Notes: generated by a model not told the origin, from the letters alone. A stretch of DNA of 64,000 nucleotides from an uncultured Gemmatimonadota bacterium (GCA_951812955.1 OX638340.1:1024001-1088000); one strand, 5' to 3'. Positions 16,512 through 37,300 are shown, counted from the first letter of the stretch. Made by a program: numbers and translations.

Positions 16512-16545
16512 ATTGATATTTGCCTCGCCTGTTCGAAATGCTAGG

Positions 16546-16625: not shown

Positions 16626-16638
16626 ACCCGGCCGGCCG

Positions 16639-17658: not shown

Positions 17659-17794
17659 CGGTAAACGTCCCCCCACGCGAAATCGGGTTACAAATCGTGG
17701 TCTGCGGCCGAACAGGTTGCGTGATGCGTAAGCCGCAATATAACGTCCGTCCGATCTTGACGCAACATACCGAAGACTGTTACTTGGTAAGTCA

Positions 17795-20048: not shown

Positions 20049-20110
20049 GCGTGAGTGCCGTTTAACCAGGGAAGCGAATATGGGATCCGATTCCCCATAC
20101 CATATGGATA

Positions 20111-20153
20111 CTCGGCCGCGGACGCCTGGCCGCGGATGCTCGGCCGCGGGATG
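20111..20153. repeat. about 14-bp tandem repeat x3 centred on GGCCGCGG
   Basis: GGCCGCGG occurs at 20114-20121, 20128-20135 and 20142-20149 with similar flanks (CTCGGCCGCGGAcgc / CTGGCCGCGGAtg / CTCGGCCGCGGGatg), 30-70 nt upstream of the next CDS. Confidence 0.8.
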
Positions 20154-20184
20154 AATTGAAAACGTACGTTTCCGGAGATTACTC

Positions 20185-21246
20185 ATGCATGACGTTATGC
20201 CCCCGGCAGTCCGGGCTGCTTTGAAACAGGGCGTGGTTATCCCGGCCCATCCCCTGGCAGTCACGGCAGACAGAATGCTGGACGAGCGCCGCCAGCGTGC
20301 GCTCACGCGGTACTACCTCGCTGCCGGTGCCGGTGGCCTTGCCGTGGGCGTTCATACGACCCAGTTCGAGATCCGGGATCCGACGTACGGACTCTACGAT
20401 CCGGTGCTGGGGCTTACCGCGGAGATCATGGACCGGGAAGCACCGGCGGATTTCATCCGGATCGCCGGGATCTGTGGACGGACGGCGCAGGCGACCGGCG
20501 AGGCGGAAACGGCAAGATCCCTTGGCTACCATGCCGGCCTGCTCAGCCTGACCGCCATGGGCGGCGCCACGGACGACGAACTTATCGCGCACTGCCGGGC
20601 CGTGGCCGACGCCATACCCGTCATGGGGTTCTACCTGCAGCCGTCTGTCGGCGGCCTGGTGCTCCCCTTCCGTTTCTGGCGGCGATTCGTGGAACTGGAA
20701 GGGGTCGTGGCCATAAAGATCGCGGCGTTCAACCGGTATCACACGCTCGACGTGCTCAGGGCACTGGCGGAATCCGGCAGGCACGAGGAGATCGCGCTCT
20801 ACACCGGAAACGACGACAACATCGTGATGGATCTCCTGACGGAGCACGCATTCCAGTGCGGAGACGCGCGCCGGTCGGTACGGTTCAGGGGCGGGCTGCT
20901 TGGTCACTGGGCTGTATGGACCCGGGGAGCTGTGGAGTTGCTGCGGGCGTGTCAGGCCGTCTCGACATCCTGCGAGGCGGTACCCCAGAACCTGCTGACC
21001 CGATCGATCGAGGTCACGGACTGCAACGCGGCATTCTTCGATCCTGCCCATGGTTTTGCCGGGTGCATCCCCGGGATTCACGAGGTGCTGCGCAGGCAGG
21101 GACTGCTCGAAGGCAACTGGTGCTTAAATCCCGAAGAGACCCTTTCGCCCGGCCAGTACGAGGAGATAGACCGGGTTTACCGCGCTTATCCCCATCTGAA
21201 CGACGACGCGTTCGTCGCAGAACACCGGGACGACTGGCTCAGATGA
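20185..21246 (+). CDS. dihydrodipicolinate synthase (DapA/NAL)-like family protein
   Basis: 353 aa. The N-terminal ...VVIPAHPLAV...YYLAAGAGGLAVGVHTTQFE... matches the style of a DHDPS-like TIM-barrel subfamily. This is a family-level call. Confidence 0.55.
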   Translation: MHDVMPPAVRAALKQGVVIPAHPLAVTADRMLDERRQRALTRYYLAAGAGGLAVGVHTTQFEIRDPTYGLYDPVLGLTAEIMDREAPADFIRIAGICGRTAQATGEAETARSLGYHAGLLSLTAMGGATDDELIAHCRAVADAIPVMGFYLQPSVGGLVLPFRFWRRFVELEGVVAIKIAAFNRYHTLDVLRALAESGRHEEIALYTGNDDNIVMDLLTEHAFQCGDARRSVRFRGGLLGHWAVWTRGAVELLRACQAVSTSCEAVPQNLLTRSIEVTDCNAAFFDPAHGFAGCIPGIHEVLRRQGLLEGNWCLNPEETLSPGQYEEIDRVYRAYPHLNDDAFVAEHRDDWLR

Positions 21247-21308
21247 ATGCACAGTAGAAAACCTCATCCGCATGACGGATGCTTGAACCGCCGGAAACGG
21301 AGCAGAAC

Positions 21309-22427
21309 ATGAAGATAACCCGCATTGAAACCATTCCTGTCGAAGTGCCACTCAAGCAGGGCATGACCACGAAAACCGCTCACGGCGAACATATCGTCTC
21401 CCCTTACGTCATACTCAGGGTGCATACGGACGAGGGGCTGACCGGGTTGGGCGAAGCCACGGTCGCGCCGCGCTGGAGCGGAGAAACGTCCGCGTCCTGT
21501 ACAGCTGCGATCCGGGATCTGGTGGATCCCGCGCTGAAGGGGGAGGATCCGGCTGACGTGAACCGGCTTTGCGGAGTCATGGACGAGGTCGTCAAGCTGA
21601 ACCCCTTCACCAAGGCGGGCGTGGAGATGGCCCTTTGGGACCTGGCGGGCAAGCATGCGGGGAAGCCTCTCTATCAATTGCTGGGCGGAAAGGTCCGGCA
21701 AGAGATTCCAATGAAGATGGTGGTCGGCGCCTTTGACGTGCCGACTTCGGTTGCCCTGGCGGAGAAATTCCTGCAGTGGGGTGTGCAGTGTCTCAAGGTC
21801 AAAGTCGGGCTGGATCCCGGGGAGGATCTCGAACGCGTCCGCGCGGTCCGCGCGCTGGCCGGCCCCGACATCCGTATGAGCATCGACGCGAATTGCGGGT
21901 GGCCGCCGGCCGTTGCGCGACGCATGTTGCATCTCCTCGAGCCATTGGACATCCTGTTCGCAGAGCAGCCCATGGCACCGCAGTTCGACGATGAAGCGGC
22001 CCTGATCAGAACGGGCACGACCATCCCCATCATGGCCGACGAGAGCGTCTTCACCCCGCACGACGCCATGCAGACCGCACTGCGCCGATCGGCGGACATC
22101 ATCAGCGTATATCCGGGCAAGAACGGAGGGATCGGACAGACGCTGGGCATCTCGCACGTGGCCAGCGCGGCGGGACTGCGCTGTCACATGGGCAGCAATC
22201 TCGAGTTGGGGATCGCCACGGCGGCCATGCTCCACGTGGCGGCCAGCGTGGAACCCATCGACAGTGAGACCTATCCCGGCGACCTGCTCGGTCCGCTGTA
22301 CCACGAAGGCGATATGATCGAGACGCCGCTGGAACTCGGCCCCGTCCATGCGAGCGTACCCGAAGGACCCGGTCTCGGAGTCACCCTGGATGAAGCACAG
22401 ATCGAACGCTGGAAAGACGCGTCATGA
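21309..22427 (+). CDS. enolase superfamily enzyme (muconate cycloisomerase / dipeptide epimerase-like subgroup)
   Basis: Contains MKITRIETIPV..., the KxK motif (LKVKVG), DANCGW, AEQP and ADES metal/base motifs. The start is at 21309; the ORF extends to 21279. Confidence 0.8.
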   Translation: MKITRIETIPVEVPLKQGMTTKTAHGEHIVSPYVILRVHTDEGLTGLGEATVAPRWSGETSASCTAAIRDLVDPALKGEDPADVNRLCGVMDEVVKLNPFTKAGVEMALWDLAGKHAGKPLYQLLGGKVRQEIPMKMVVGAFDVPTSVALAEKFLQWGVQCLKVKVGLDPGEDLERVRAVRALAGPDIRMSIDANCGWPPAVARRMLHLLEPLDILFAEQPMAPQFDDEAALIRTGTTIPIMADESVFTPHDAMQTALRRSADIISVYPGKNGGIGQTLGISHVASAAGLRCHMGSNLELGIATAAMLHVAASVEPIDSETYPGDLLGPLYHEGDMIETPLELGPVHASVPEGPGLGVTLDEAQIERWKDAS

Positions 22428-22442
22428 CCGGCTGTTCGAACG

Positions 22443-22514
22443 GAATCCCACCCATGACCGGATCCGCATGCATGACCGGAATCCCACCTATGACCGGATC
22501 CACACGCATGACCG
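22443..22514. repeat. 36-bp tandem repeat x2 (33/36 identical), rich in ATGACCG submotifs
   Basis: Units at 22443-22478 and 22479-22514 differ at 3 positions. ATGACCG occurs 5 times between 22424 and 22514. Confidence 0.9.
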
Positions 22515-22589
22515 TTACGCGCGGCACGATACACAGTTACGAGCATAGCGCCAACCTAGAAGCAGTACCAAACTACAGAAAGGACAGCC

Positions 22590-23648
22590 ATGGCTGACGA
22601 ACGGACCTACAAGGCTTGCGTGGTGGGCCTGAGCGGCATCGGGGCGGGGCAGCCCCCGGTCGACGGCGACCACGGAATGGGCCAAGAAATGCCTAACCGG
22701 CACGTACCGGCCTATGCCCTCCTGCCGTTTACGGAGGTGGTCGGTGTATGTGACCTGAAAGAAGACCTCCTGCAGGAAACCATGGATGATTGGTCGGGTA
22801 CCTTCCCGGGATTGCGGGGATTCGCGGACTACAGGGAGATGCTTGAAGCCTGCAAACCGGATATACTGAGCGTAGTAACATCGGACCACCGCCACGCGGA
22901 CATCGTCGTGGACGGAGTCGCGGCGGGCGTTCGGGGCATCTATTGCGAGAAACCGATTGCGACCTCACTTGCGGATGCCGACCGCATGATCGCCGCGGTG
23001 GAAAGCCGGAACGTGCCCATGAACATCAACCACACCCGCCGCTGGGGAGCGGTATACCGGGAAGTCAGGAAGCTGCTCGACGAAGGCGCGATCGGCGAGC
23101 TGAAACGCATCACGCTGAATTTCGGCGGCCCCCGGGCCATTCTTTTCCGCAACGGCACCCACATGATCGACATGGCCTGCTACCTCGCGGGATCGGAACC
23201 CGCGTGGGTTTTCGCCGAACTCGACGAAGGCTACGAGGACTACTGGCCCTACCAGGGCGATGGCGGAAGGAACGCGGACCTGGAGCCGGGCTGCTCCGGT
23301 TTCATCCATTTCAAGAACGGCGTGCGTGCATTTTACAACGGTTCCAAGGGAATGGAATGCCGTGGAGGTTACCAGCTGGACGGTACCGACGGATGGATGT
23401 TCGTTCACGAGGACTATTACGAGCTCGACACGGGTAAAGGTATCCAGACTGTCGCTCCCAAGGGTCCGACCCATTACTACTCCGTCGCGGCTATCCGGGA
23501 CCTCGTCCACGTCATGGAACACGGAGGTGAGACCATTTCACCTCCCCGCGCCGCCCGGAATACCCTGGAGATCATCCTGGGGTTTCTCGCATCACAGAAG
23601 CACGGCAACGTACGCATAGATTTCCCGCTGGACGAGAACACCGTATAG
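22590..23648 (+). CDS. Gfo/Idh/MocA family oxidoreductase
   Basis: Contains the N-terminal VVGLSGIGAG and the EKP motif (IYCEKPIA). 352 aa. Confidence 0.75.
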   Translation: MADERTYKACVVGLSGIGAGQPPVDGDHGMGQEMPNRHVPAYALLPFTEVVGVCDLKEDLLQETMDDWSGTFPGLRGFADYREMLEACKPDILSVVTSDHRHADIVVDGVAAGVRGIYCEKPIATSLADADRMIAAVESRNVPMNINHTRRWGAVYREVRKLLDEGAIGELKRITLNFGGPRAILFRNGTHMIDMACYLAGSEPAWVFAELDEGYEDYWPYQGDGGRNADLEPGCSGFIHFKNGVRAFYNGSKGMECRGGYQLDGTDGWMFVHEDYYELDTGKGIQTVAPKGPTHYYSVAAIRDLVHVMEHGGETISPPRAARNTLEIILGFLASQKHGNVRIDFPLDENTV

Positions 23649-23671
23649 CCTTCCACGAGCGGTAACTTCCC

Positions 23672-25714
23672 ATGAGCGTTCGCATCGCCATCGACACGGG
23701 CGGCACGTTTACAGACCTTGTATTGTCCGACCCCGACACGGGCCGGCTGGTCTTTCACAAGGTGCCGAGTACGCCCGCCGATCCGAGCCGGGCACTGGTG
23801 GAAGGTGTCAAAGGGCTCGTCGACCGGGCCGGCGTCGGCACTGCCGAAATCCTGTTTCTGATTCACGGTACCACGGTGGCCACCAATACGATCCTTCAGC
23901 GGAAGGGGGCCCATACCGCCTTCATCACCACCGAAGGGTTCCGGGACGTGCTCCACATCCAGCGGCAGGACCGCCCCCACCTGTACAACATGCGCATCCG
24001 CCGGACCCCGGCCCTCGTACCCCGCTCACTGCGATATGAGCTGCCCGAACGGACCCTGCACGACGGGTCGGAAGCGGCGCCGATAGACCAAGATCGACTT
24101 GGCAGCCTCGTGGCGGCACTCAGGGAGGAAGGCATCGAAGCCGTCGGCGTCGGGTTTCTCCACAGTCACATCGATCCCGGTCACGAACAATCGGCAGGCG
24201 AAGTGCTGCGGCGGGCACTGCCCGAAACCACAGTCTGCCTCTCCTCCGACATGAGTCGTGAAGAAGGCGAATACGAACGGTTCAGTACTTGCGTCATGAA
24301 CGCCTACGTGCAGCCCATCATGACGAACTACCTGAAGAAGGTGGACGATGCCCTTTCCAAGGCATCCATCGAGGCGCCGCTGTATGTCATGAAATCCAAT
24401 GGCGGGGTCACCTCGGCCCGGGACGCAGCGGATCACTGCGTGCATACGATTCTTTCAGGTCCGGCCGGGGGTGTCGTGGCCGGCGAGGAAATCGGAAGGC
24501 GGCTCGACCGGCCAAACGTCATCACCGCCGACATGGGGGGAACAAGTTTCGACGTGGCGATGATATATGAACGCAACATAGCTTTCGCGAAGAACGCGGA
24601 GATCGACGGCCTGGCCCTCAAAGCCCCCATGATGGACATCCATACGATTGGCGCAGGCGGTGGCAGCATCGCATGGATCGATTCGGGCGGCGCCCTGAGG
24701 GTGGGCCCGCAATCGGCAGGGGCGGAGCCGGGTCCCGCCTGCTACGGCGCCGGCGGTTCCGAACCCACCGTGACAGACGCGAACCTGGTGCTGGGCCGGC
24801 TCTCCACGGACAGTCTGCTGGGCGGCGCGCTGTCGCTGGATTCCGAAACCGCGCGTCGGGTGATCGACGAGAAAATCGCGGCCAGTCTGCAATGCACGGT
24901 GGAGGAGGCCGCCGAAGGGATCATCCGGGTGATCAACGCCTCCATGACGGCGGCCATCCGGAAGCTCACCGTGGAACGGGGGTACGATCCCCGCCTCTTT
25001 ACGCTGGTTCCCTTCGGCGGCGCAGGACCGCTCCATGGTACCGCTCTTGCCCGGGAACTGGGCATACGCGACGTGGTGGTACCGCTCGCGCCCGGGGTCG
25101 CTTCGGCCGAGGGCCTCGTTTTTTCGAACCTGCGTTCGGACCGGATCCAGACCCACGTAGAACTGCTGGATCGACTCGGGGCTTCGGAATTCGAGAAGAT
25201 GCTGGAAGAACTGACCGTACAGGCGGAAGGGGATCTGTCTACTTCGTCGGCTACAGGCCATCCGGTCATCAGCCGGCGCGCGGGCCTGCGATACGCAGGT
25301 CAGGGGTACGATATTCCCATCGACCTGCCCGAGGGCGCCGCCGACCTCGCCTTGCTCGAATCGGCCTTTCACCTCGAGCACGAGCGCCAGTACGGATTCG
25401 CGCGGCGTGATCAACGGGTTCAACTCGTCAACCTGTGGGTGTCTGCGGAACTGGTGATTTCGGGCAGCCGGCGTGATACCGCCGAACGAGCCGTGCCGGA
25501 TCGACCCAAACCACCTACCATGCGGCCCGTGTATCTTTCAGGCAACTGGATCGAAACAGCCGTGTTTGACCGTACCGCACTGCGCAGCGGCCAACAGATC
25601 GACGGACCGGCCATCATCGAACAGCTTGATTCCACGACACTGATCTGGCCCGGTGAGCACGCAGGAATCGATGCCTGGGATCAGATCGTCATTGCCGGAC
25701 TGGAAAACCCATGA
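23672..25714 (+). CDS. hyuA: hydantoinase/oxoprolinase family, A (beta) subunit
   Basis: 680 aa. The N-terminus MSVRIAIDTGGTFTDLV is characteristic of HyuA/OplA-type ATP-dependent hydrolases. Confidence 0.85.
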   Translation: MSVRIAIDTGGTFTDLVLSDPDTGRLVFHKVPSTPADPSRALVEGVKGLVDRAGVGTAEILFLIHGTTVATNTILQRKGAHTAFITTEGFRDVLHIQRQDRPHLYNMRIRRTPALVPRSLRYELPERTLHDGSEAAPIDQDRLGSLVAALREEGIEAVGVGFLHSHIDPGHEQSAGEVLRRALPETTVCLSSDMSREEGEYERFSTCVMNAYVQPIMTNYLKKVDDALSKASIEAPLYVMKSNGGVTSARDAADHCVHTILSGPAGGVVAGEEIGRRLDRPNVITADMGGTSFDVAMIYERNIAFAKNAEIDGLALKAPMMDIHTIGAGGGSIAWIDSGGALRVGPQSAGAEPGPACYGAGGSEPTVTDANLVLGRLSTDSLLGGALSLDSETARRVIDEKIAASLQCTVEEAAEGIIRVINASMTAAIRKLTVERGYDPRLFTLVPFGGAGPLHGTALARELGIRDVVVPLAPGVASAEGLVFSNLRSDRIQTHVELLDRLGASEFEKMLEELTVQAEGDLSTSSATGHPVISRRAGLRYAGQGYDIPIDLPEGAADLALLESAFHLEHERQYGFARRDQRVQLVNLWVSAELVISGSRRDTAERAVPDRPKPPTMRPVYLSGNWIETAVFDRTALRSGQQIDGPAIIEQLDSTTLIWPGEHAGIDAWDQIVIAGLENP

Positions 25715-27390
25715 AGACCGACCCCATCACCCTGGAACTGATGCGCAACCGGTGGACCGGCATCGCGGAGGAAATGTGCGCCGCGCTGATCCGCACCAGT
25801 TACTCCACCAATATCAAGGACCGGCGCGACTGTTCCGCGGCCATCGTGCAGCCCACGGGGGAGATCCTGGCCCAGGCCGAGTCGGGCGTCCCCTTACACC
25901 TGGGCGTGATGCCAGGCGTGGTGAAGTCCATCCTGGAAGTCTATCCCGTGTCGGCCATGAAGCCTGGAGACGTCTACATCACGAACCTGCCGTATCCCGA
26001 AGGACCGGGCCATCTGCCGGATGTTTCCCTGGTATCCGCCATATTCTATGAAAACCGCGCGGTCGCACTGGCGGCATCCACCGCCCATCACGTGGACATG
26101 GGCGGGTTCGCACCGGGCAGCATGCCCTTCGGCGTGACGGAAATCTACCAGGAGGGCCTGCAGATCCCCCCGCTCCCCATTTTCAAGGGCGGACAGCTTG
26201 ACGAAGATATCTACAAGTTGATCAACCAGAACGTGCGGACGCAGTACGAGGTGCGGGGCGACCTGATGGCCCAGTACGCCTGCGCACAGATCGGCCAGCA
26301 GAGGGTAAGCGAACTCATGTCCAGGGAGTCGCCCGAAGAAGTAATCCACTACATGGACGAGATCCAGGACTACGCGGAACGACGGATGCGGGCGGGGATA
26401 GGGACCCTGCCCGACGGCGAGTACACCTTCGAGGACTACCTGGACGACGACGGCGTCACCGATACGCCAGTGAAGATCGCGGTCGCCCTGACCGTCTCGG
26501 GCGACGAACTGCGCGCGGACTTTTCGGGTTGCAGCGACCAGGTTCTGGGTCCGCTGAACGCGCGGCTGCCGGCGGCCGCTTCCTGCATAAGCTACGTGTG
26601 CAAGGCGGTGATCGATCCGGACCTGCCCGCGTGTGCCGGGGCGTACCGGCCCCTGGACATCTTCGCCCCCGAGGGATCCATCCTGCAGGCTACCTATCCG
26701 GCGGCCATCGGGAACGCCAACATCCTGACGGACCAGCGGGTCGTGGACGTGCTGATGGGCGCGCTGTACCAGGCCGCGCCCGACCGCGTATGCGCGGCCT
26801 GCAGCGGGGAGATGAACCTGGTAAATATCGGCGGAATCGATCCTGCTTCCGGGGAGTACTACAACTACGTGGAAACCTACGCCGGTGGGCAGGGCGCCAT
26901 GTTCGACATCGACGGAGAGGACGGCGTGCACACGCACCTCACCAACACACGGAACGCGCCGGTCGAAATCATGGAACGTACCTACCCGCTGCGGGTCGAG
27001 CGGTACGGCCTGATCCCGGATACGGAGGGGCCCGGCCGCCAGCGCGGAGGCTGCGGGATGATGCGGGAGCTGAAGTGCCTGGGTGAACGCACCATCATCA
27101 CCCTGGGTTCAGACCGCCGGAAGTTCACGCCCTGGGGGCTCGAAGGCGGCGGCAATGCGTCGGGCGCCCACTGTTACGTGATCGACAACGAAGGGCAGGT
27201 CAGGGAGATCCCTACCAAGGCCCATACCGAGCTTTACAGGGACGACGTCCTGCGGATCGAAACCCCCGGCGGCGGTGGCTGGGGAGACCCGGCCGAACGG
27301 GTCCGGGAGAAAGTGGAAGAGGATGTGCGAAACGAGCTCATTGGCCCGGAACGGGCGAGCGGACACTACAGATGGGGGAAGGATCAGTAA
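25711..27390 (+). CDS. hyuB: hydantoinase B/oxoprolinase family, B (alpha) subunit
   Basis: 559 aa with N-terminal DPITLELMRNRW...IAEEM. A 4-nt ATGA overlap with hyuA indicates coupling. Confidence 0.85.
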   Translation: MKTDPITLELMRNRWTGIAEEMCAALIRTSYSTNIKDRRDCSAAIVQPTGEILAQAESGVPLHLGVMPGVVKSILEVYPVSAMKPGDVYITNLPYPEGPGHLPDVSLVSAIFYENRAVALAASTAHHVDMGGFAPGSMPFGVTEIYQEGLQIPPLPIFKGGQLDEDIYKLINQNVRTQYEVRGDLMAQYACAQIGQQRVSELMSRESPEEVIHYMDEIQDYAERRMRAGIGTLPDGEYTFEDYLDDDGVTDTPVKIAVALTVSGDELRADFSGCSDQVLGPLNARLPAAASCISYVCKAVIDPDLPACAGAYRPLDIFAPEGSILQATYPAAIGNANILTDQRVVDVLMGALYQAAPDRVCAACSGEMNLVNIGGIDPASGEYYNYVETYAGGQGAMFDIDGEDGVHTHLTNTRNAPVEIMERTYPLRVERYGLIPDTEGPGRQRGGCGMMRELKCLGERTIITLGSDRRKFTPWGLEGGGNASGAHCYVIDNEGQVREIPTKAHTELYRDDVLRIETPGGGGWGDPAERVREKVEEDVRNELIGPERASGHYRWGKDQ

Positions 27391-27465: not shown

Positions 27466-28845
27466 ATGGTTAATGGAACCATACCAAAACGTATAGCCAT
27501 TATCGGCGGTGGGATATCCGGGCTGGGCGCAGCGTGGGCGTTGAATCAACATCCAGACCGGTTCGATTTCCGTATTTACGAAGCCCGGGAGCAGGTGGGC
27601 GGAAACGCAATCACCGCCGACATGCCGCAGGATGACGGCGGTTCCATTCCCTTCGACATTTCCGTCACCGCACTGATCCCATCGGTCTATCACCACATCC
27701 TGTTGTTGATGCGGAAGTTCGGCATCGAACTGCTCGATACCCGGTTCAACTACAGCGTGAAATACCATGGGCAGGTATACGCCCACGATTTCGACTCCGC
27801 CATCAGAAGGCAGCTGCAACCGGAGATTGTCCGGTTTCAACGGCTCCTGAAGCGTCTTCACCGGCTCGGCTGGCTGACCCATTCCCGGTCGAGGCTCGTC
27901 AACGCGCTCAATCCCTTAAATTACGTCAGCATGGGGACCGTGCTCAACCTGGGCGGTTTTTCAGGGGACTTCAGGTTCAAGATCCTGAAGCCCATGTTCG
28001 TCAATTTCCTGATGGCGACGAACGTGTTCGATATGCCCGCGTCGCTTTTTGCGCGGTACCTGGAGTTCTTCGATATCGAATCTGCGACGCCCATGCAGAC
28101 GTGGGACCAGGGCACGCGTCGTATCTACGAGCACCTTTCAGCCGGTTTCCGGGACAGGATATACCTCGGCCGGCCCGTACGAAAAGTGTACCGACGGCCG
28201 AACTGTGTCGTGATCGAGGATCCGGACGGAGTAGAGGAGACGTTCGACGAGGTGATCTTCGCCTGCAACGCGAACCAGACGCTGATGCTGCTCGACCGGC
28301 CCACGTTTCTGGAGCGGTACATTCTGTCGTCGATCCGTTATGAAAGCGAACTCCACAACCACACGGTCGTGCATTCGGACGCCTCCGTCCTGCCGGAGAA
28401 CGAAGTGAAACCGCTGGAGACGCGGAGCAATCATATTGAACAGTACGGGGCCAGGCCGGACAACTATGAAATAACCTACATCATGCACAACCAGCAGCCA
28501 TGGGCCAACCGGTCCGACAAACCCTGCCTGGTGACCTATAACCCGGTCACGCCCATCGACGAACGGAAGATCGTCAAGAAGTGGTGGTTCCAGCACATCG
28601 TGCATGATGTGCGCCATGTCGCCTGGCTCATCCATCTGTTCCGTTTCATCCAGGGCAGACGGCGGACCTGGCACTGCGGTGCCCATACCCTGATGAACAG
28701 CCAGGAAACCTGCTTTGTAACGGGACTCGCCGCGGCCTCGCAGATCGGCGCTGAATATCCCTTCAAAGACCCCCTGGCCAGGCGCATGTTCAATTATTAC
28801 GGAAGAATTCTGCACGGCTGGCGTTTCCGGAAGGCGAGAGGTTGA
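27466..28845 (+). CDS. NAD(P)/FAD-binding oxidoreductase (amine-oxidase-like Rossmann flavoprotein)
   Basis: The dinucleotide fold reads RIAIIGGGISGLGAAWAL...YEAREQVGGN. 459 aa. The substrate is unknown. Confidence 0.7.
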   Translation: MVNGTIPKRIAIIGGGISGLGAAWALNQHPDRFDFRIYEAREQVGGNAITADMPQDDGGSIPFDISVTALIPSVYHHILLLMRKFGIELLDTRFNYSVKYHGQVYAHDFDSAIRRQLQPEIVRFQRLLKRLHRLGWLTHSRSRLVNALNPLNYVSMGTVLNLGGFSGDFRFKILKPMFVNFLMATNVFDMPASLFARYLEFFDIESATPMQTWDQGTRRIYEHLSAGFRDRIYLGRPVRKVYRRPNCVVIEDPDGVEETFDEVIFACNANQTLMLLDRPTFLERYILSSIRYESELHNHTVVHSDASVLPENEVKPLETRSNHIEQYGARPDNYEITYIMHNQQPWANRSDKPCLVTYNPVTPIDERKIVKKWWFQHIVHDVRHVAWLIHLFRFIQGRRRTWHCGAHTLMNSQETCFVTGLAAASQIGAEYPFKDPLARRMFNYYGRILHGWRFRKARG

Positions 28846-29090
28846 AAACCGCACCGGGTGACAGGGCTTCTACTGTCCAGTCAACATGCACCGAACGACG
28901 GAAATCCCGCGCGTATCTGCGCCGCCGCATTCCCCGCTACACCTGTTCGGGCCAAATCCTGCTTGTCGCGTTAATGCCTTGTAGTTATCATACTTACAGT
29001 GTGGAACACTATAGCGTTTCTTGACCCCTGCGGCCCTTCGATACCCGGACGAATTCACCGGCGCCGAGGAGGATCACGGAAGGACTGGAT

Positions 29091-30167
29091 TTGCATACCT
29101 CCGAAACGATCGCAACCCCCATGGCCGACGCAGATACCGTACACCGTACCGGGCACGCTCCGGGTGGCCTACCCCCCTTCCCGGAAGGCTGGTACCTGGT
29201 AACCACGCGCGAAACCCTGTTGCGGGAAAAACTGATCGAGAAGATGTGGATGGGGGAGAACATCGTCGCATGGTGTGACGAGGAAGGCCGTATCTGCGTG
29301 GCCGACGCGGTTTGTCCGCACCTGGGTTCCGACCTGGGACCGCAGGTCGGCGGCAAGATTCACGGTGGCCGCCTGGTCTGTCCGTTCCACGGGTTCGAGT
29401 TCGATGCGACGGGTCAATGCGTCGCGACGCCCAACGCCCCGGCGCCGAAAGCCGCGAAACTGACCGTGTATGAAACCCGTGAGATCTCCGGCCTGGTCTT
29501 CGCGTGGTACGGAATCGACGGCCGTCCCGCGCACTGGCACCTGCCGGACGATCCTCCGACCGGTAACGAGTGGGGCGAACTGGGATTCAGAACCCTGCGT
29601 TTTCGCAGCCATCCACAGGAAACGGCGGAGAACTCCGTGGATATCGGACACCTGCGCTACGTACACGGCTATGACAATGTGGACCCGGTCGGCCCGGTGA
29701 CGGTGGACGGAGCCTACCTGAGGAGCTGTTTCAACTTCAAGCGCGTCCGCAGCATTATGGGCTTGAAGGACCTCACCTATGAAGTATCGGCCGTCGCCCA
29801 TATCCACGGTCTGGGATACTCCTATGTCGAAGTCCACGAAAAAACGATCGATATGCACTTGAGACTGTGGGTACTGCCCACGCCGATCGATGGCAGCCTG
29901 ATCGATCTCGTACTGGCGGGCCAATTGCAGGGAATCCGCAGACCCCGGCGTTTCATCTCGGGCCTGGGGTTCCTCCCCATGGCGTTGCGCAACCGCTTGA
30001 TGAAGCAAATCATGCTTTCACAGCAAAAACGGGACGTACTGCAGGACGTGGTGATCTGGGAACGAAAGCAGTTTCGCACGCCGCCCCGGCTGTGCAAGGC
30101 CGATGGGCCCATTGGCCTTTACCGGCGCTATTGCCTGCAGTTCTATCCTGAACAACCGAAAGCCTGA
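29091..30167 (+). CDS. Rieske [2Fe-2S] non-haem iron oxygenase (KshA / cholesterol-7-desaturase / SdmA-like class)
   Basis: The Rieske motif is CPHLGSDLG...CPFHGFEF (CxH...CxxH), followed by a catalytic-domain-sized C-terminus. The TTG at 29091 is preceded by GGAAGGA. An alternative ATG lies at 29121. Confidence 0.8.
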   Translation: MHTSETIATPMADADTVHRTGHAPGGLPPFPEGWYLVTTRETLLREKLIEKMWMGENIVAWCDEEGRICVADAVCPHLGSDLGPQVGGKIHGGRLVCPFHGFEFDATGQCVATPNAPAPKAAKLTVYETREISGLVFAWYGIDGRPAHWHLPDDPPTGNEWGELGFRTLRFRSHPQETAENSVDIGHLRYVHGYDNVDPVGPVTVDGAYLRSCFNFKRVRSIMGLKDLTYEVSAVAHIHGLGYSYVEVHEKTIDMHLRLWVLPTPIDGSLIDLVLAGQLQGIRRPRRFISGLGFLPMALRNRLMKQIMLSQQKRDVLQDVVIWERKQFRTPPRLCKADGPIGLYRRYCLQFYPEQPKA

Positions 30168-30255
30168 CCAATGCGACCCTTATCGGAGACAGGTAGAAGG
30201 TGGTCCGGTCCTGGAGGAGACCGCTCAAGCCTGCTGATATCTGCCGCTCTATAAG

Positions 30256-31050
30256 CTATCCGCCGTCCTCCAGCTCAGCCAGAGTCTCCAGCACCCCCTG
30301 CTGGATGAACTCCTCGTAGGCGTCCCGTGTCGGTAGTTCGGCCGCCTTCGACAGCATTTTCGTGGCCCGCGCCCGGCCGTCCTCGCGATCAAGATATGGA
30401 AGCCTGAGCGCATATTCAAACAGCACGACCTTCGAGTCCGGAGCTAGCTCCAGAGCCCGCTCGTAATGGATGACGGCGTTTTTCCGATTCCCCTTGTACA
30501 AGAACCGTGCAACGCGCCCGGCACGTGCGATGTCGGCGTGCCAGCCCCCTAAGGCCATATGCGCCTCTGCGAAGTCGGGGGAGATGGTGAGCGCGGTCTC
30601 GAGCAAATCGCGTGCCCTGCCCGCCAGACCTCGGCGAAATGCAGTTAGTTTACCGATACTCTGTGCATATCGGCCAACAGCGTGCGCGGATTGGAAATAT
30701 GCTTCGGAATTGGTCGAATCGATGCGCACTGCTTCTTCCCCGTACTCTATCGCGCGTTCCAAAATACCGTTCCGGTCCTCCTCAGTCGCCACATGGTGGC
30801 CGTACACCGCGAGCGATTGCGCCGCAAGGGCGTAGCCTTCGGATGTACCGACGGCTGACGCGAGATCCGCCGCCTCGAGAAAACGGCCTTCCTCGAAATC
30901 GGTCCTTGCTTCATCGATCGACTGCGCGTTCGCGCCAGCCGGGTCGGCCAGGCTGGCCGCAATAATCACGAATCCCGCAACTGCCACGAAACGGACAACT
31001 GCCGCGAATCCCGCAACGACTGCGAAACGGTAAAACTGGGTAAGGGTCAT
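30256..31050 (-). CDS. secreted/periplasmic TPR (Sel1/TPR-like) repeat protein
   Basis: 264 aa. A hydrophobic N-terminus ends ...PAGANA|Q, followed by helical repeat segments (...AEAHMALGGWHADIA..., ...AVIHYERALELAPDS...). Confidence 0.6.
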   Translation of the reverse strand: MTLTQFYRFAVVAGFAAVVRFVAVAGFVIIAASLADPAGANAQSIDEARTDFEEGRFLEAADLASAVGTSEGYALAAQSLAVYGHHVATEEDRNGILERAIEYGEEAVRIDSTNSEAYFQSAHAVGRYAQSIGKLTAFRRGLAGRARDLLETALTISPDFAEAHMALGGWHADIARAGRVARFLYKGNRKNAVIHYERALELAPDSKVVLFEYALRLPYLDREDGRARATKMLSKAAELPTRDAYEEFIQQGVLETLAELEDGG

Positions 31051-31208
31051 CTGATATCCCCAGTTCTATTCAGCGGACGGGTACTCGCATCTCGGCTCGA
31101 CGCTTTAGTGTCTTTCAGCGATCAGTCATGCGAATCCACACCATATGGACAAACGCGGTGCTGCCCGACGGCATCGGCTATGGACCGATTCGACTAGGTC
31201 AACGGGGT

Positions 31209-32252
31209 CTAAAGAGGTTTACGAGCCAGGAAACAGTACAGCGGCGTGAAGATACCCGACCTGCCGCCCTCGACATAAGCGTCAGCAGTTCGATCCAGGA
31301 GTCGGACCACTTCCGAATACCCCTTCGGAATCAGACTTAGCGCTTCGGCCATCTTCGATCCTGCGATCACGGCCTTGCGACCCCAAGGGAGCCTGTTCAG
31401 TGCGTTCCCCAAAGTCCCATGCCGACTCTCCATTGGCCGATACCAAGGCGTGGAGGGTTCATTCCGGACGTCTCGGTCCATCCCTTCGATGACGTGGAAT
31501 CCCGCCGCTTCAAGCCCGTGATTCACTTCCCTGAACGTCGCAATGTCGTTCAGCGCAATGCCGCGCATGAGGTCCTGCTCAATGGCCCGGTGCCGGTTGT
31601 CTTTCGGATCGAATTTCTCGGTCAGACACATTTCCTGACCCCAAAACAGGGCTCCTGGTTTGAGTACGCGGAAGATCTCCGCGAAAGCGCGTTCCTTGTC
31701 TGGCGCGTGGCACGTTGACTCGATGGCATAGGCTCGGTCAAACGTCTCGTCCTCAATGCCGCCCATATCCATGAAGCTACACGTCTCGTAATCGACCATG
31801 TGGCCGAGTCCCGCTTCAGCGTTCAACCGCTTTGCCTTATCCAATTGGAGTTCGTTGATGTTGATTCCGACAACCCGGACGCCGGCCTCCCGGACGACGC
31901 GACGCATCGGACCGCCGATTCCACAACCAACGTCGGCCACCGTCATACCCTGCTCCAACTCCAGCTTCGAGATCATCAACCGCTGATGCCGGATTATGGA
32001 TTCCTCCAGGCTTTCATCGGGCTTTAGTGGCGCGAAGTGGAGGGATTCGCTCCAACCCCACACCATTAACCCGCTGCAAAGATCATAGTACTCTTTCACT
32101 GTTTCTGTGTGGTCGTACTCATACGCGCCATCGGCCCCCGGGACCGCCCGGGCTGCCCGGGCGGTCCAGCCTTCAAGGCGCTGCGCGCGACTCTTGACGT
32201 CCGATCCCCGGCTCGCATCTTTCAGTTCTCTGGATAGTTTGCCCATCGCCAT
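31209..32252 (-). CDS. sterol C-24 methyltransferase (ERG6/SMT family, with Sterol_MT_C-type C-terminus)
   Basis: The protein is collinear with my recollection of yeast ERG6. YYDLCSGLMVWGWSESLHF corresponds to YYNVVTDFYEYGWGSSFHF, DVGCGIGGP to DVGCGVGGP, AIESTCHAP to AIEATCHAP, FRVLKPG to YKVLKPG, and C-terminal IFTPLYCFLARKP to LFTPMMLFVARKP. Confidence 0.85.
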   Translation of the reverse strand: MAMGKLSRELKDASRGSDVKSRAQRLEGWTARAARAVPGADGAYEYDHTETVKEYYDLCSGLMVWGWSESLHFAPLKPDESLEESIIRHQRLMISKLELEQGMTVADVGCGIGGPMRRVVREAGVRVVGININELQLDKAKRLNAEAGLGHMVDYETCSFMDMGGIEDETFDRAYAIESTCHAPDKERAFAEIFRVLKPGALFWGQEMCLTEKFDPKDNRHRAIEQDLMRGIALNDIATFREVNHGLEAAGFHVIEGMDRDVRNEPSTPWYRPMESRHGTLGNALNRLPWGRKAVIAGSKMAEALSLIPKGYSEVVRLLDRTADAYVEGGRSGIFTPLYCFLARKPL

Positions 32253-32288
32253 TTCGTGGTATTCCCCTGGTTTTTCGTCTACAAGGCT

Positions 32289-34316
32289 TCAGACTTGCAG
32301 TTCGTGTCTTTGCTCGGAGATGACGAACTGCAGCTTCTTGGTCGGTTTCATAGACGGAAACGGATTGAACCGCAGCTTATAGTTTGCAGGCGACACATCG
32401 ATCTTGAAGTAGTGCGCCAGCATCAGCACGTTGACAGCCAATTGCAGTTCCATCCAACGGGTGCCGAGACACATGTGCGTGCCCAGCCCGTACGGAGCGT
32501 ACCCGGGGCTGCGATGCTCATTGCGCGACGGCAAGTAGCGGTCGATGTCGAAGGAGTGCGGGTCGGGGAAGATGTCACTCATGTAATGCGAGGCGGTCGG
32601 CGCGATGTGGATCCGTTCCCTCATGGGCAGTTCGTATCCCTCAAACACACACGTATTCATCACGTGTCGAACAGACATGGGAACGATCGGGTACATGCGC
32701 ATACACTCCATGAGGAAGCGGTGCGTGACGTCAATCGCGGATGGAGTGAAGGCCTCGATGTCCGGAACGCCGTTCCCGAATACGTCATCGGCTTCATTTC
32801 GGATTTTCTCGTAGAGTGCAGGCTGCGACGCCATGGCATAGACTACCAGACTGAACGTGTCACCAAGGTACACGCTGGCGATCAACGCCGCAGAAAAGGC
32901 AAACCGCAGGTTGGCCTCCGGGAGGAATTGCGGGTCGCTCGCGTGCAGGCTAAGGTAATCGTCCACCAGGTCCCGCGGTTTTCCGGCCCGTTGGGCGGGG
33001 GTGTGGCCCTCCTCGACTCTTTTCATCAGTGTATCAAGGGATTTCGCCCGGCGTTTCATGCCCGGGGTGTTCAGCGTGAACTCGGGCAGCATCCTGGCGA
33101 TATGCACGCTGAGCGCCCGTTCCTTGTACTGCATCAGATCGTCCATCAGGTCCTGCGTGTCGATGCCGATAAACAGGGGCGAGAGTTGGGCGTTTATCAT
33201 CTGCCGGCACATGGACGTAGCAGAATAGGAATCGCCGACATTCAAGCTTGCCATGTATTTCCAGGCATGATGGTAGAGCTTGTCCAGCTGCCCCGCAAGT
33301 CTCCCGCGTGAATACGCTGGAGACAAAGACTTGCGCAGGCGGAAATGGTCGGCGCCGTCCAGGGAAGGCAAGAGGCCGGAAGCGCCGTAGACTTTCTCGA
33401 AGTCTCTGAAATAGTCCTTGGCACTCAGGTACATGCGCCCGTGCTTATGCACCCAGCGGTTTGCCTCGGGTCCGACCAGGAAGACCATGGGCCGGGTGAA
33501 AGGAGGGCGGATCTCAAACACCGGACCGTAGTCCTGCGCAAGGTCCGCAAAGAGCGCGTGGAGGTTGCCGTCTCGAACATGCGGTTGCATCATCAGCTTG
33601 CGTAACGGTACCCTCGGAATCTTCTTTGTAAAACCGGGACGTCGAAGCGTCGGGCCGGCGAGTTTGTGGGAGACTGCTTCGGCGATGGACCGGCCGATCA
33701 CGTCCATCTTGCAGATCAACTCGATGCGTTGCTCCGTCTCGTCATCGAGTTGGAACATGAATCGAAACACATCGCACGTATTGACGAGGCAAATTACGAT
33801 AACGTCTCTCGGGTCGGGGATCTCGTTCATGAAGATCGCCCGGCTGATCCGCGTTCTGATGAACTGACTTGCAGTACTCGAATCGACATCGTTGTTCAAT
33901 TCCATCTTCCAGTCAGTACGGGCCAGCGTCCAGAACTCGCCATCGTGGTGTTCCAGGATCTTCATTTCTACCAGGCGATCCAGAACCGAATCTATAATGG
34001 TCTCCGCTCGGGGGGCCAGCCGTTCGATCCAGTACTGTGTATTGTGCTGATTTGGCTCATTTACGATTTCTTCCAGAATGAAATCGATGGTGGAATTGCC
34101 CGTTGGTGTCTGGTCGAGGACGAACAGAGACCCCGGGTCCGTGTCGATGCGAGATCTGATTGAAAGCTCCGCAAGTGCGGCACCGATTACGGCGCAGTTC
34201 AAATCCCAGCCAGGCACCTGGTGGAAGTAGCCAGTCTCCTCATTGAGGAGCATCAGGATGAGTTCCTGGGTCAAAGTAAGTGATTGGGGCTTCACGTCCT
34301 TTGCAGTATCAGCCAT
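32289..34316 (-). CDS. GPP34 (GOLPH3/Vps74-like) domain fused to cytochrome P450
   Basis: The N-terminal ~200 aa follow the GPP34 pattern (LTQELILMLLNEETGYF...WDLNCAVIGAALAELSIRSRI...PDPRDVIVICL). The C-terminal part has P450 ExxR (ECMRMYP) and haem loop YGLGTHMCLG. The start is taken at the ATG at 34316, which overlaps the RND stop (TAATG); the ORF extends to 34406. Confidence 0.8.
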   Translation of the reverse strand: MADTAKDVKPQSLTLTQELILMLLNEETGYFHQVPGWDLNCAVIGAALAELSIRSRIDTDPGSLFVLDQTPTGNSTIDFILEEIVNEPNQHNTQYWIERLAPRAETIIDSVLDRLVEMKILEHHDGEFWTLARTDWKMELNNDVDSSTASQFIRTRISRAIFMNEIPDPRDVIVICLVNTCDVFRFMFQLDDETEQRIELICKMDVIGRSIAEAVSHKLAGPTLRRPGFTKKIPRVPLRKLMMQPHVRDGNLHALFADLAQDYGPVFEIRPPFTRPMVFLVGPEANRWVHKHGRMYLSAKDYFRDFEKVYGASGLLPSLDGADHFRLRKSLSPAYSRGRLAGQLDKLYHHAWKYMASLNVGDSYSATSMCRQMINAQLSPLFIGIDTQDLMDDLMQYKERALSVHIARMLPEFTLNTPGMKRRAKSLDTLMKRVEEGHTPAQRAGKPRDLVDDYLSLHASDPQFLPEANLRFAFSAALIASVYLGDTFSLVVYAMASQPALYEKIRNEADDVFGNGVPDIEAFTPSAIDVTHRFLMECMRMYPIVPMSVRHVMNTCVFEGYELPMRERIHIAPTASHYMSDIFPDPHSFDIDRYLPSRNEHRSPGYAPYGLGTHMCLGTRWMELQLAVNVLMLAHYFKIDVSPANYKLRFNPFPSMKPTKKLQFVISEQRHELQV

Positions 34317-37300
34317 TAGTGGCCTCCCTTCATCAGACGCAGATGAATGGTAGAAAGAGCGGGAACGACCATCATGAGTATGGCCGTGACGACGAGGATA
34401 CCGCAACCAAGCGATGCGGCAAAGGGAACCAGGAACTGAGCATGAATAGCGCGTTCCAGAATCAAGGGGGTGAAGCCGAGAAACGTAGTCAGAGAAGTAA
34501 GCATAATCGGACGAAAACGTCCCTTTGCGCCCTCTATGATCGCAGTTCGCGCCGGAGCGCCTTCCCTGAGTTTCTGATCGATGAAAACGATCATGACCAG
34601 TGAATCGTTCACAACCACGCCGCTCAGGCCGAATATACCCATGAAGGAGATTGCGCTCAGGGCTACTCCAAGGGCCCAGTGACCAAGGATCACTCCGATG
34701 AACCCGAACGGGATCACCGCCATGATGATGAACGGTTTGGTATAGGATCGTAAGGGGATGGCGAGCAGCACGAAGATCATGATCAGAGCGATCGCAAATC
34801 CGCGATACAGTGCATCCAGGGAATCGAGTTGTTGTTGTTGCTCACCTCCGAACGTGTAGGTCAGGTCCGGGTACACGGCGGTCAATTCCGCGAGGATTGA
34901 ATCCGCCAGGATGCTATTGGCCTGGTCACCGGAGATCACCGCGGCATCCACGTCCGCAGTGACCGTGACGACACGCTGACCATCCTTCCGCCGAATGGCC
35001 GGCGGCGACACGCCCGTGTTCAGCGCGGCCACACTGACGATCGGGACCTCGGCACCGGCCGGCGTACGGATCAGGTACCTTTCGATATCGGTGATGGAAC
35101 TTCGTTCATCGGCGGGCAGGCGCACGTAGACCCGAACCTCTTCACGGCCGCGCTGCACCCGGACGGCATCCGCACCGAAAAACGCGGCGCGCGTCTGTCC
35201 GGCCAACGCTTCCAGCGTGAGACCCAAAGTCCGCGCTTCCGGCCGGAGTTCAAGCTGTATTTCCGGGATACCCGGGGTGTGATCCGAACGGACATCGTAG
35301 ACGCCTGTCACTCCACGGAGACCATCGACCACCGAGTCCGCAATCCGGGCGAGTCGCACCGGATCCGGATGCGACAGCACGGCCTCGACCGGGTTGCCCA
35401 GGTCGAAGACCTCTCCGCTGAAGGTGACACCGCGCACGTAGGGCAGCACACCCACTTCCTCTCGCCATGCCTGCACAACCTCTCCGGTAGTGATCTGCCT
35501 TTGCTCCGCGCTCAGGAGTTTGAACTCGATGGTTGCAATGTTGGCCTGAGGATTAAGGGTGGGGGCTGGATTAAGCCCACCCTCGAGCCTCGAGCCCTGT
35601 CCGACGGTCACCATTACGCCGGTCAGCAGTGGTGGCGCATCCTCGGGGCGGCCGCGCGAAAGCCGATCGACGACCCGGTAACCTGCGGCCTCCAGTTCCT
35701 GTGCCACCTCGTATGTCCTTGGAGCGGTCGTCCCGTCGGGCATCTCCAGGATGACCGTCGCAAAATCCCCCTCCACGTCAGCAGCCAACGTGGTAGGTAC
35801 GATCCCCGCCGGTACCAGCGAGATACTAAGTACGAGTATTCCAACGGCCCCCCCCAGCGTGACCGCGGGCTGATCCGTCGCGAACCGTAACGCTCGGTCC
35901 AGGGGACCCTGCACGAACCGGTTCAGCGACTCGTTCACACGTCCCTGGATCCGCGCGAAGAACCGGTCGAAAGCACTTGTCGGCGTCCATTCCGGACCGT
36001 GCAAACGGGACAGGTGGTTGGGTAGTACCAGCAGTGATTCGATCAGGGAAACAAACAGTATGGCGATAAGGATGATCGGCAGTGCCCGCCATACGTCACC
36101 GACGCCTCCGGGTATGAACAGCAGCGGGACGAAAGCCACCACCGAAGTAAGGACCGCGAAGGTCAACGGCACTTTTATCCGTCGTACTCCGCGTATCGCA
36201 GCCACGACACCGGGCGTTCCCCGACTGCGTTCATATTGAATGTGCTCGGCTACGACGATGGCGTCATCGACGACAATCCCTATGGCGAGGACGAAAGAGA
36301 ACAGGCTGATGGTGTTAATAGCTACGTCGAGTACCATCATGACGGCCAATGTGCCTATACCCGAAACGGCGAGGCCGACGGCGACCCACAATGCAAGCCG
36401 GATTTCCAGAAACAGGCTGAGTGCGATCAACACCAGCAACAGACCCAGGATGCCATTCTTGACGAGAATATCGGCACGTTCCTCATAGGCTTGGGATTCG
36501 TCATTCCACATGGTGATGTGCACACCGTTCGGCAGAGCCGGGATCACCTCGTTTGCCATATGTTCCCGGACAGTCGTGGCGACGTCCATCACTTGTTCGC
36601 CGTTGGCTCGGTACACCTCGACGAATACAGCGGGATGGTTCTGATGCCGAACAATCAGGTCGGATTCCTGAAAACCATCGCGAACCCTGGCGATATCGCC
36701 AAGGCGCAAGGCAGTGCCGTCACTTCTGCTAAGCAGGATGATCTCTTCGAAATCCTGCTGGTCGTAGTTCTGGCCGAGGGTACGAACCCGCACCTGGGAT
36801 TCCCGGGTATCGATACTGCCGGCAGAAAGGTTCAGGGAACTGCGACGAATGGTATTGGCGACATCGGCGAGTGTCAGTCCAAGGGCTCTCAGCCGATGAA
36901 GCGGCACCTCGATGGAGATCTCGTATTTCCGAACACCACTGACCTCGACCTGGGACACGGACGGAAGCGCCGTGAGTCCATCCTCGATCTGATATGCCGT
37001 TTCCTTCAGCGAGCGTTCGGACACGTCGCCGTAGACGATGAACCGTATCATGCTCATACGGTTGTCCATCTCACGGAAACTGGGACGATCGGCACCGGCC
37101 GGGAAAGACTGGATGCGATTGACCGCGGACTCGATATCGTTGAGCGCCTGGACCATGTCCGTACCGAAATCCATTTGAATCCGCACGGATGCTATACCCG
37201 GGGCCGCTACAGACTTGACCGCCTTCACGTCATCCAACCCGCTGACCTGGTCCTCGATCTTGACGACGATCGACTCCTCGACCTCCTCCGGCGTGGCGCC

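Follow-up and report, generated by a model that had tools for sequence, protein, structure and literature searches.

The cholesterol 7-desaturase Neverland/DAF-36, an enzyme of the Rieske plus KshA_C type, acts on the intact sterol and cleaves no ring; the enzyme is eukaryotic and its gene is unclustered. The same domain architecture is found in KshA, the oxygenase of 3-ketosteroid 9-alpha-hydroxylase (PDB 2zyl, 4qck, 4qdc, 4qdd and 4qdf), which acts on a steroid, and another member of the Rieske oxygenase class, SdmA, forms together with SdmB (MCA1016/1017 of Methylococcus capsulatus) the bacterial sterol C-4 demethylase (Lee et al. 2018, as cited in PMC10070321). Here we analyse a Rieske oxygenase gene from an uncultured Gemmatimonadota bacterium, located in a stretch of 64 kb (GCA_951812955.1 OX638340.1:1024001-1088000) that we call the window as a whole. 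The gene is preceded by that of a flavoprotein and faces, on the opposite strand, the genes of a sterol methyltransferase (SMT), of a GPP34 domain fused to a cytochrome P450 (GPP34-P450) and of an efflux pump of the RND superfamily. From the comparison of many such loci we consider it probable that the Rieske protein and the flavoprotein belong to a horizontally shared module of sponge- and coral-associated bacteria, devoted to sterol tailoring and export.

Parts of this gene set have already been met in sponge symbionts. GPP34-P450 proteins were reported to be exclusive to these bacteria and expressed in Aplysina, and were proposed to be secreted effectors that bind phosphatidylinositol 4-phosphate (PI4P) and act against phagocytosis (Microbiome 2025, PMC11706023); the text of that paper mentions no methyltransferase, RND protein or lipid, and names Rieske only as a rare fusion partner. 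Steroid biosynthesis clusters were described by Kelly 2022 (PMC9531527) and Brown 2023 (PMC10070321); those of Brown et al. contain true sdmA homologues, 44-47% identical to MCA1016, and not the Rieske family studied here, while other SMTs of bacterial sponge symbionts accept desmosterol as a substrate of methylation in vitro (PMC10070321). Sponge-only clusters of "KshA homologues" were instead read as steroid catabolism by Holert et al. 2018 (PMC5790920). Two further systems offer a parallel: the UfaM/UfaD/UfaO furan fatty-acid pathway (PMC7380195), which follows what looks like a similar logic, from a CMAS-type methyltransferase acting on a lipid olefin to a phytoene-desaturase-like flavoprotein and then to an O2-using enzyme, and BstABC/HpnN (PMC10942540), where the gene of an RND-superfamily transporter lies next to those of sterol or hopanoid enzymes and its product moves the lipid to the outer envelope, with a TPR-like helper.

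The locus of the window differs from each of these systems. Its Rieske protein shares with KshA the Rieske and KshA_C domains and the metal-ligand motifs, but is only 21-24% identical to it and is linked to SMT, GPP34-P450 and an exporter rather than to KshB or catabolic genes. SdmA has VanA_C as catalytic domain instead of KshA_C; its homologues stand beside SMTs in sponge symbionts and sometimes beside the module itself. The window fusion has the same architecture as the published GPP34_L of sponge symbionts, and its distribution over many phyla of these symbionts agrees with the published one, but it is a member of an operon with SMT and pump, next to Rieske and flavoprotein genes. The steroid biosynthesis clusters have in common with the module the hosts, the phyla and the signs of horizontal transfer and constraint, and they physically adjoin it in Binatia, Nitrospirales and Opitutales; however they consist of an oxidosqualene cyclase (OSC), CYP51, ERG24, SdmA, SdmB and an SMT of another clade (40-44% identity), and the adjoining genes that had been left without a name are those of the module. 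The Ufa substrate is a fatty acyl chain and not a sterol, and the pump of the window, unlike BstABC/HpnN, is an AcrB-type tripartite efflux system whose neighbouring TPR protein has no sequence similarity to BstC. By analogy, Neverland/DAF-36 may be the best functional model for a tailoring role of the Rieske protein. In the literature searched, which left out most subscription journals, we found no paper describing the linkage of the module (search terms GPP34, sterol, sponge, Rieske, KshA and methyltransferase).

The Rieske oxygenase and its relation to KshA and SdmA

Open reading frames (ORFs) of the window were listed mechanically and their domains assigned by a Pfam scan. The two genes reported in the initial annotation of this DNA were both recovered at their coordinates, and the second of them (29091-30167, plus strand; 358 aa from a TTG start), whose product is the founding member of the module clade, contains in translation the Rieske motifs CPHLGSDLG and CPFHGFEF. 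The protein matches the Pfam Rieske model with 58.2 bits (cut-off 20.3) and KshA_C (PF19298) with 80.3 bits (cut-off 23.3), the latter with full coverage, from profile position 2 to 207 of 207. The motif C75-P-H77 ... C97-P-F-H100 (CxH...CxxH) is invariant in alignments of 15 and of 40 sequences, and D184, H187, H192 and D319 (D-x2-H-x4-H plus a distal Asp) are invariant across the aligned homologues; by analogy with KshA, we take them to be the ligands of the mononuclear iron.

The best match in a PDB sequence search was KshA (1e-22), limited in phmmer to the N-terminal 190 residues or so, followed at about 1e-12 by SxtT, phthalate dioxygenase and dicamba monooxygenase (DdmC). The AlphaFold2 (AF2) model of the protein reached a pLDDT of 77 and a pTM of 0.80, and a fold search with this model gave again KshA at the top (TM 0.72-0.77, 21-24% identity) and then SxtT/GxtA and DdmC. 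From its sequence and modelled fold, the protein is a member of the KshA-type (alpha3) class of Rieske oxygenases, as had been supposed. A KshA orthologue, however, was rejected, given this low identity and the lack of catabolic neighbours. The homologues number 1,724 at E<=1e-10, the top 120 being 63-93% identical, and in a quick neighbour-joining tree the Rieske clade of the module is monophyletic.

The likeness to SdmA, which had been put forward together with that to KshA, did not survive. With the NCBIfam equivalog model of SdmA (4-beta-methylsterol monooxygenase, NF052579) the Rieske protein obtains 31.8 bits, where the cut-off is 600, and aligns only over residues 34-114, i.e. the Rieske domain, so that identity with SdmA was discarded. 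An SdmA-like protein encoded in a Binatia locus (L024) attains 408 bits with the same model and aligns along its whole length; this protein and the one of a Nitrospirales locus (L079) have Pfam VanA_C and no KshA_C, adjoin an SdmB-like gene, and coexist in one and the same locus with a module-type Rieske protein. Identity between the window Rieske protein and the SdmA-like protein of L024 is 18.5%, and the Pfam scan of the window revealed no sdmB neighbour of the Rieske gene.

Conservation of the module and its links to sterol genes

At least 80 loci anchored on the Rieske gene were fetched from GTDB contigs, with one genome per species, and 51 of them had full flanks of 10 kb; partner genes were detected by tblastn with the window proteins. 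Among the full-flank loci listed, GPP34-P450 occurs in 48 of 51, the RND permease in 40, the SMT in 34 and the flavoprotein in 26, and at least two of these four partners are present in 49; the membrane-fusion protein (MFP) was found in 23 and the outer-membrane efflux protein (OEP) in 16. The initial annotation had tied its sterol reading to a conserved neighbourhood with the SMT, and the 34 loci with an SMT within 10 kb, coming from many phyla, bear this out. The core of the module consists of a transporter of the RND superfamily and four further genes, which encode a KshA-fold Rieske protein, an amine-oxidase-fold flavoprotein, a GPP34-P450 and an SMT of its own clade. Lineages differ in the order and strand of these genes, and de novo clustering of ORFs among the locus neighbours produced no further widely shared gene.

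Concerning the taxonomic range, the Rieske loci listed belong to Gemmatimonadota, Latescibacterota, Binatia, Acidobacteriota, Gammaproteobacteria, Nitrospirota (Nitrospirales), Verrucomicrobiota (Opitutales) and Rhodothermales; the module is found also in Chloroflexota and Acidimicrobiia, for a total of at least 10 phyla. According to their titles, nearly all loci come from metagenome-assembled genomes (MAGs), and many bear isolate labels of bin series from sponges or corals. In the monoderm Chloroflexota and Acidimicrobiia an RND protein of the MMPL/Patched/Sterol-sensing type replaces AcrB-MFP-OEP beside flavoprotein, Rieske and GPP34-P450, and the SMT is present in the Chloroflexota version. 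A Rieske protein at 51% identity has as partners only a GPP34-P450 and an MMPL protein, which suggests that Rieske, GPP34-P450 and MMPL constitute a minimal triad.

Across phyla, the module proteins share with those of the window 52-77% (Rieske), 78-84% (flavoprotein), 64-78% (SMT), 73-83% (RND) and 41-71% (GPP34-P450) of their residues. These values fit a horizontal spread under strong constraint, such as Kelly et al. observed for the sterol-synthesis clusters of the same hosts. The linkage holds only down to about 50% Rieske identity, because two homologues tried as module members (P0299, 41% identical, and P0337, 34%) lie in contexts outside the module and were discarded. The upstream hydantoinase, GFO and MR_MLE genes were excluded as well, being conserved in close relatives only.

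Some side observations concern the members of the module. A second GPP34-P450 subtype, 40-45% identical to that of the window, lies directly 3' of the Rieske gene in L017, L019, L024, L031, L034, L059 and L061 (at about 11100 in each locus, about 3750 in L059, and with a 4-nt Rieske overlap in L024); at this identity, the module would contain at least two paralogous GPP34-P450 lineages. A 645-aa protein (P0311/P0444, L085 10001-11938) was considered as a GPP34-Rieske fusion and rejected, having no similarity to the window GPP34 domain and an unrelated context. It carries an N-terminal extension of ~290 residues whose family was not recognised, followed by a Rieske/KshA_C part 40% identical to that of the window; proteins of this type were seen on ~100 contigs, outside the module, one of them named from an Acidimicrobiia MAG.

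Between the window SMT and those of the remaining module loci identity is 62-90%, against 40-44% for the SMTs of the de novo biosynthesis clusters, so that, on these values, the module SMTs are a clade of their own. Metagenome contigs were scanned with an alignment of module SMTs as query. At least 45 loci were found with an SMT at least 60% identical, all on sponge-metagenome contig series, and the identity then falls sharply, to 47% or less, in contigs of other environmental metagenomes. Four of these series derive from Aplysina, Petrosia or Sarcotragus metagenomes, as reported in Supplementary Table 4 of Brown et al. (PMC10070321). The module appears largely or wholly restricted to sponge symbionts. 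In the SMT-anchored loci of at least 12 kb (22 listed), the module Rieske gene is present in 10 and GPP34-P450 in 11.

A direct junction with sterol genes is observed in three phyla: sdmA- and sdmB-like genes adjoin the module in Binatia (L017, L019, L024 and L031), Opitutales (L063) and Nitrospirales (L079), and also on a metagenome contig (L091). In L079 the order is P450-ERG24-SdmA-SdmB-SMT, then flavoprotein, outer-membrane protein (OMP), Rieske, module SMT and GPP34-P450, where the OMP is a beta-barrel gene (9013-9927) inserted between the flavoprotein and Rieske genes. The Nitrospira MAG of Brown et al. has three unnamed genes between two assayed SMTs (PMC10070321). From gene order we infer that these would be FAD, OMP and Rieske genes as in L079, and the same order suggests that the assayed Nitrospira SMT "2 of 2" (gene 2682229270) is of the module type. 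The contigs tested by these authors (Ga0209021_1000146, LXNJ01000389 and LXNJ01004423) are not among the 80 loci listed. The Binatia locus L019 shows in addition, at 14695-20400, SdmB- and SdmA-like genes followed by three tandem SMT paralogues (39-43% identical to the window SMT), an array that adjoins the flavoprotein, Rieske and GPP34-P450 genes of the module.

Among metagenome contigs not from sponges, 13 of 35 SMT loci listed contain a different KshA_C Rieske gene, translationally coupled to the SMT, whose product is 24-31% identical to that of the window and which starts between 4 nt before and 10 nt after the SMT stop codon. The quick neighbour-joining tree of the KshA_C family places this SMT-coupled clade on a branch apart from that of the module, and the coupling of SMT and Rieske therefore occurs in two separate lineages. 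The pair was seen in L137 (6956-9045), L138-L140, L143, L148, L155, L159, L161, L162, L166, L168 and L169; its SMT is of another clade (40-44% identity), and it is embedded in a housekeeping context (DnaK/DnaJ, arginine biosynthesis and AsmA) in which further sterol genes are lacking.

Organisation of the genes in the window

The flavoprotein gene (27466-28845, plus strand, 459 aa), recognised in the initial annotation as amine-oxidase-like, matches Pfam Amino_oxidase with 54.7 bits (cut-off 19.8) and NAD_binding_8, and its FAD motif G14-G15-G16-x-x-G19 (GGGxxG) is invariant. In the PDB it resembles LkcE (6e-26, over residues 8-437) and the fatty-acid isomerase of Propionibacterium acnes (2b9w, 2e-10), while weak NCBIfam matches are to protoporphyrinogen oxidase, HpnE and carotenoid (phytoene-desaturase-like) desaturases. 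Its AF2 model was poor (pLDDT 47, pTM 0.49) although the fold is a common one, and the likely cause is the shallow alignment (26 sequences, all at least 79% identical). The top 120 homologues, from Gemmatimonadota, Chloroflexota and Acidimicrobiia, are 79-97% identical, a conservation higher than that of the Rieske protein. Where present, the flavoprotein gene is usually the immediate neighbour of the Rieske gene (median gap 90 bp).

The stop codon of the Rieske gene at 30167 converges on the gene of a TPR protein (30256-31050, minus strand; Pfam TPR families), an accessory member with a hydrophobic N-terminus (Kyte-Doolittle value 2.44), predicted to be a signal or anchor, which adjoins the Rieske gene in 13 of 80 loci listed; its identification as BstC or TatT was discarded, as it gave generic TPR matches only. 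The module-type SMT (31209-32252, minus strand) is 1,042 bp from the same stop codon. It matches Pfam Sterol_MT_C (56.7 bits, cut-off 21.7), Methyltransf_11 (66.5 bits) and CMAS, and conserves a GW.ESLHF block which, in our reading, resembles SMT region I. The geometry described initially is therefore correct, including the presence of four candidate enzymes within 7 kb, since flavoprotein, Rieske, SMT and P450 span 6.9 kb (27466-34406).

The GPP34-P450 fusion follows at 32289-34316 (minus strand), with both Pfam domains in one ORF: GPP34 at residues 45-245 and p450 in two stretches up to residue 693, the best being 454-693. The heme loop YGLGTHMCLG is intact and the ExxR motif reads ECMR. Translation probably begins at the ATG at 34316; the TTG at 34406, to which the mechanically listed ORF extends, is probably not used, judging from the arrangement of the junction, where the stop codon of the RND gene and this ATG overlap as TAATG (34314-34318, minus strand) with a GAAGGGAGG ribosome-binding site upstream. 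From the overlap and the site it follows that GPP34-P450 should be translationally coupled to the efflux pump. We found neither a signal peptide nor a secretion gene associated with GPP34-P450. The pump is composed of an AcrB-type RND permease (34316-37489, ACR_tran 533 bits), an MFP (37486-38703, HlyD_3), which overlaps the RND gene by 4 nt, and an OEP (38710-40230, Pfam OEP), the first gene of the operon, all on the minus strand. Because of the RND/P450 and MFP/RND overlaps, the minus-strand genes can be regarded as one operon converging on the flavoprotein and Rieske genes.

The region upstream of the Rieske gene was compared with four relatives (L001, L002, L004 and L005, where L001 is the locus of an orthologue 95% identical). 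GGAAGGA precedes the TTG at 29091, which is retained in all four, while the in-frame ATG at 29121 is not conserved and is ACG in L001. A consensus scan predicts a sigma70-like promoter (TTGTCG, 17-nt spacer, TATCAT) at 28963-28991 (plus strand); the block cttgtcgcgttaa..gccttgtagttata.tacttac is kept in the four relatives whereas the flanking intergenic DNA has diverged, and from this conservation we infer that it drives the Rieske gene. An inverted repeat just downstream of this promoter had been proposed as an operator. The repeat does exist, one base off the position first given (28997-29011; 5-bp arms AGTGT/ACACT), but the operator was rejected: the gap holds two such repeats against 1.4 expected in shuffles, 40% of shuffles reach two, and none of the four relatives keeps it intact (broken in L001 and L002, deleted in L004 and L005), so that it is no more than chance. 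A repeat search returned only an overlapping palindrome of 10 nt at 90%.

Elsewhere in the window, enolase-superfamily, GFO/IDH/MocA and hydantoinase A/B (oxoprolinase-like) genes upstream of the flavoprotein (20185-27390) keep their synteny in the nearest relatives only (L002-L005, L009 and L012). A second amine-oxidase/DAO-type flavoprotein ORF lies at 45131-47128, downstream of GFO/IDH/MocA and enolase-family genes, and is by position unrelated to the module. At 51147-57900 there are four ORFs (702, 283, 900 and 333 aa) nearly without Pfam matches (one DUF4062), the first of which has weak DNA-methyltransferase matches only (PADLOC); the GC content is 0.45 at 54-56 kb versus about 0.60 elsewhere, and the block may be a foreign or defence-type island.

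Proposed function and alternative explanations

The best-supported reading of the Rieske protein is that of a sterol monooxygenase or desaturase. In the mechanism that we propose, a sterol, either host-derived or produced by the bacterium's own pathway, would be oxidised, desaturated and methylated by the module and then moved across the envelope. In the Rieske protein, a homotrimeric monooxygenase in this scheme, the cluster (C75, H77, C97 and H100) would receive electrons from a ferredoxin/reductase encoded elsewhere; D184 would relay them to the mononuclear iron (H187, H192 and D319), where the activation of O2 would lead to hydroxylation or desaturation of a C-H bond of the sterol. With low confidence, and by analogy, the Rieske protein, the flavoprotein or both may create or reposition the side-chain double bond needed by the SMT; this idea would explain why a KshA_C Rieske gene is coupled to an SMT in two independent lineages.

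Several points weigh against the proposed role in sterol tailoring and export. The handling of xenobiotics, too, typically involves AcrB-type pumps, P450s and Rieske oxygenases, and the sterol is a putative substrate. The 64-kb window lacks an OSC and other core sterol genes. Its scan revealed no FNR-type, Fer2 or glutathione-reductase-type gene, and no ferredoxin or reductase occurs among the conserved neighbours of at least 80 loci, so the redox partner of the Rieske protein must be encoded elsewhere. The module SMT stands alone in about 10 of the 22 long SMT-anchored metagenome loci; since such loci often lack Rieske and GPP34-P450, the linkage is frequent but not obligatory, and Rieske homologues at 34-41% identity occur in unrelated contexts. 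It should also be noted that the counts from both collection scans (GTDB and metagenome contigs) are samples of the matches listed, and that the sponge or coral origin of many MAGs is our assumption from the labels of isolate bin series.

The alternative that survives best is a detoxification and efflux island, in which the oxygenases and the methyltransferase modify a toxic non-sterol metabolite of the host (a terpenoid, an alkaloid or another lipid) and the RND pump expels it; in a variant of this explanation, a host-directed lipid signal is made or remodelled, in line with the published proposal of a manipulation of host phosphoinositide biology by GPP34 proteins. AcrB/MFP/OEP tripartite pumps are indeed classic efflux systems, the oxidation of xenobiotics is common for P450 and Rieske enzymes, the hosts of the module differ widely in chemistry, core sterol genes are missing from the window, and GPP34-P450, reported as exclusive to sponge symbionts, was proposed to be a PI4P-binding effector (PMC11706023). 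We nevertheless consider this explanation unlikely. The methyltransferase has Sterol_MT_C and groups with SMTs, three phyla have the module in one stretch with sterol genes (sdmA/sdmB, ERG24 and P450), and the transporter of the monoderm version matches the Patched and Sterol-sensing Pfam models; moreover GPP34-P450, lacking signal peptide and secretion gene, is translationally coupled to an inner-membrane pump.

Steroid catabolism is still less probable. Here the Rieske protein would be a divergent KshA opening ring B of host steroids, with the flavoprotein as KstD and the P450 as CYP125, a trio that the P450, Rieske and FAD enzymes of the module loosely mirror; KshA is the closest protein in both solved structure and sequence, and the sponge-only "KshA homologues" of Holert et al. 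2018 were read in this sense (PMC5790920). However, identity to KshA does not exceed the 21-24% mentioned above, the flavoprotein is of the LkcE/amine-oxidase type with no KstD match in the PDB search, kshB, hsaA-D, kstD-family and beta-oxidation genes do not recur within 10 kb in the 80 loci listed, and the neighbours that are conserved are the biosynthetic SMT and sdmA/sdmB.

It is very improbable that the flavoprotein is a mere NAD(P)H-dependent reductase feeding Rieske and P450, with no catalysis of its own: its short distance from the Rieske gene, and the fact that no other redox partner is encoded nearby, would suit such a role, but over its full length it resembles substrate-oxidising enzymes of the amine-oxidase fold (LkcE, the P. 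acnes isomerase and the phytoene-desaturase-like models) and not ferredoxin reductases of the FNR or glutathione-reductase type, and it is missing from about half of the loci with Rieske and GPP34-P450. Finally, an SdmA-type C-4 demethylase oxygenase with the flavoprotein or an unlinked SdmB as partner, which the nearby SMT and the weak SdmA model as top NCBIfam match of the Rieske protein might recall, is effectively refuted by that score, confined to the Rieske domain, and by the true SdmA-like proteins with VanA_C that stand beside SdmB in the same loci as the module.

Going back to the sterol module, we tentatively propose, as a possibility that we rate somewhat below an even chance, that more than ten phyla of sponge and coral symbionts share a horizontally transferred pathway for sterol remodelling and export, composed of a Rieske sterol oxygenase/desaturase of a new clade, a flavoprotein olefin desaturase/isomerase, a membrane-targeted GPP34-P450 and an SMT clade of its own. 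If this is true, the unconventional sterols attributed to sponges, side-chain-alkylated or oxidised, would be in part a contribution of bacteria, the GPP34-P450 proteins would be enzymes of a lipid pathway and not effectors against phagocytosis, and the SMT-Rieske pair would be a general two-enzyme device for bacterial sterol alkylation, present also in free-living sediment bacteria.

The module unites three published observations that have been treated separately, namely the sponge-only "KshA homologues", the GPP34-P450 fusions and the bacterial SMTs, and it points to an uncharacterised Rieske clade, SMT-coupled in two independent lineages. The oldest chemical evidence in use for animals consists of steranes with alkylated side chains, among them 24-isopropylcholestane and 26-methylstigmastane, and it is disputed whether sponge symbionts make or modify sterols of this kind (PMC10070321, PMC12541326). 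Being a concrete and clonable gene set, strongly conserved and provided with a distinct SMT clade and an exporter, the module would make the bacterial contribution directly testable.

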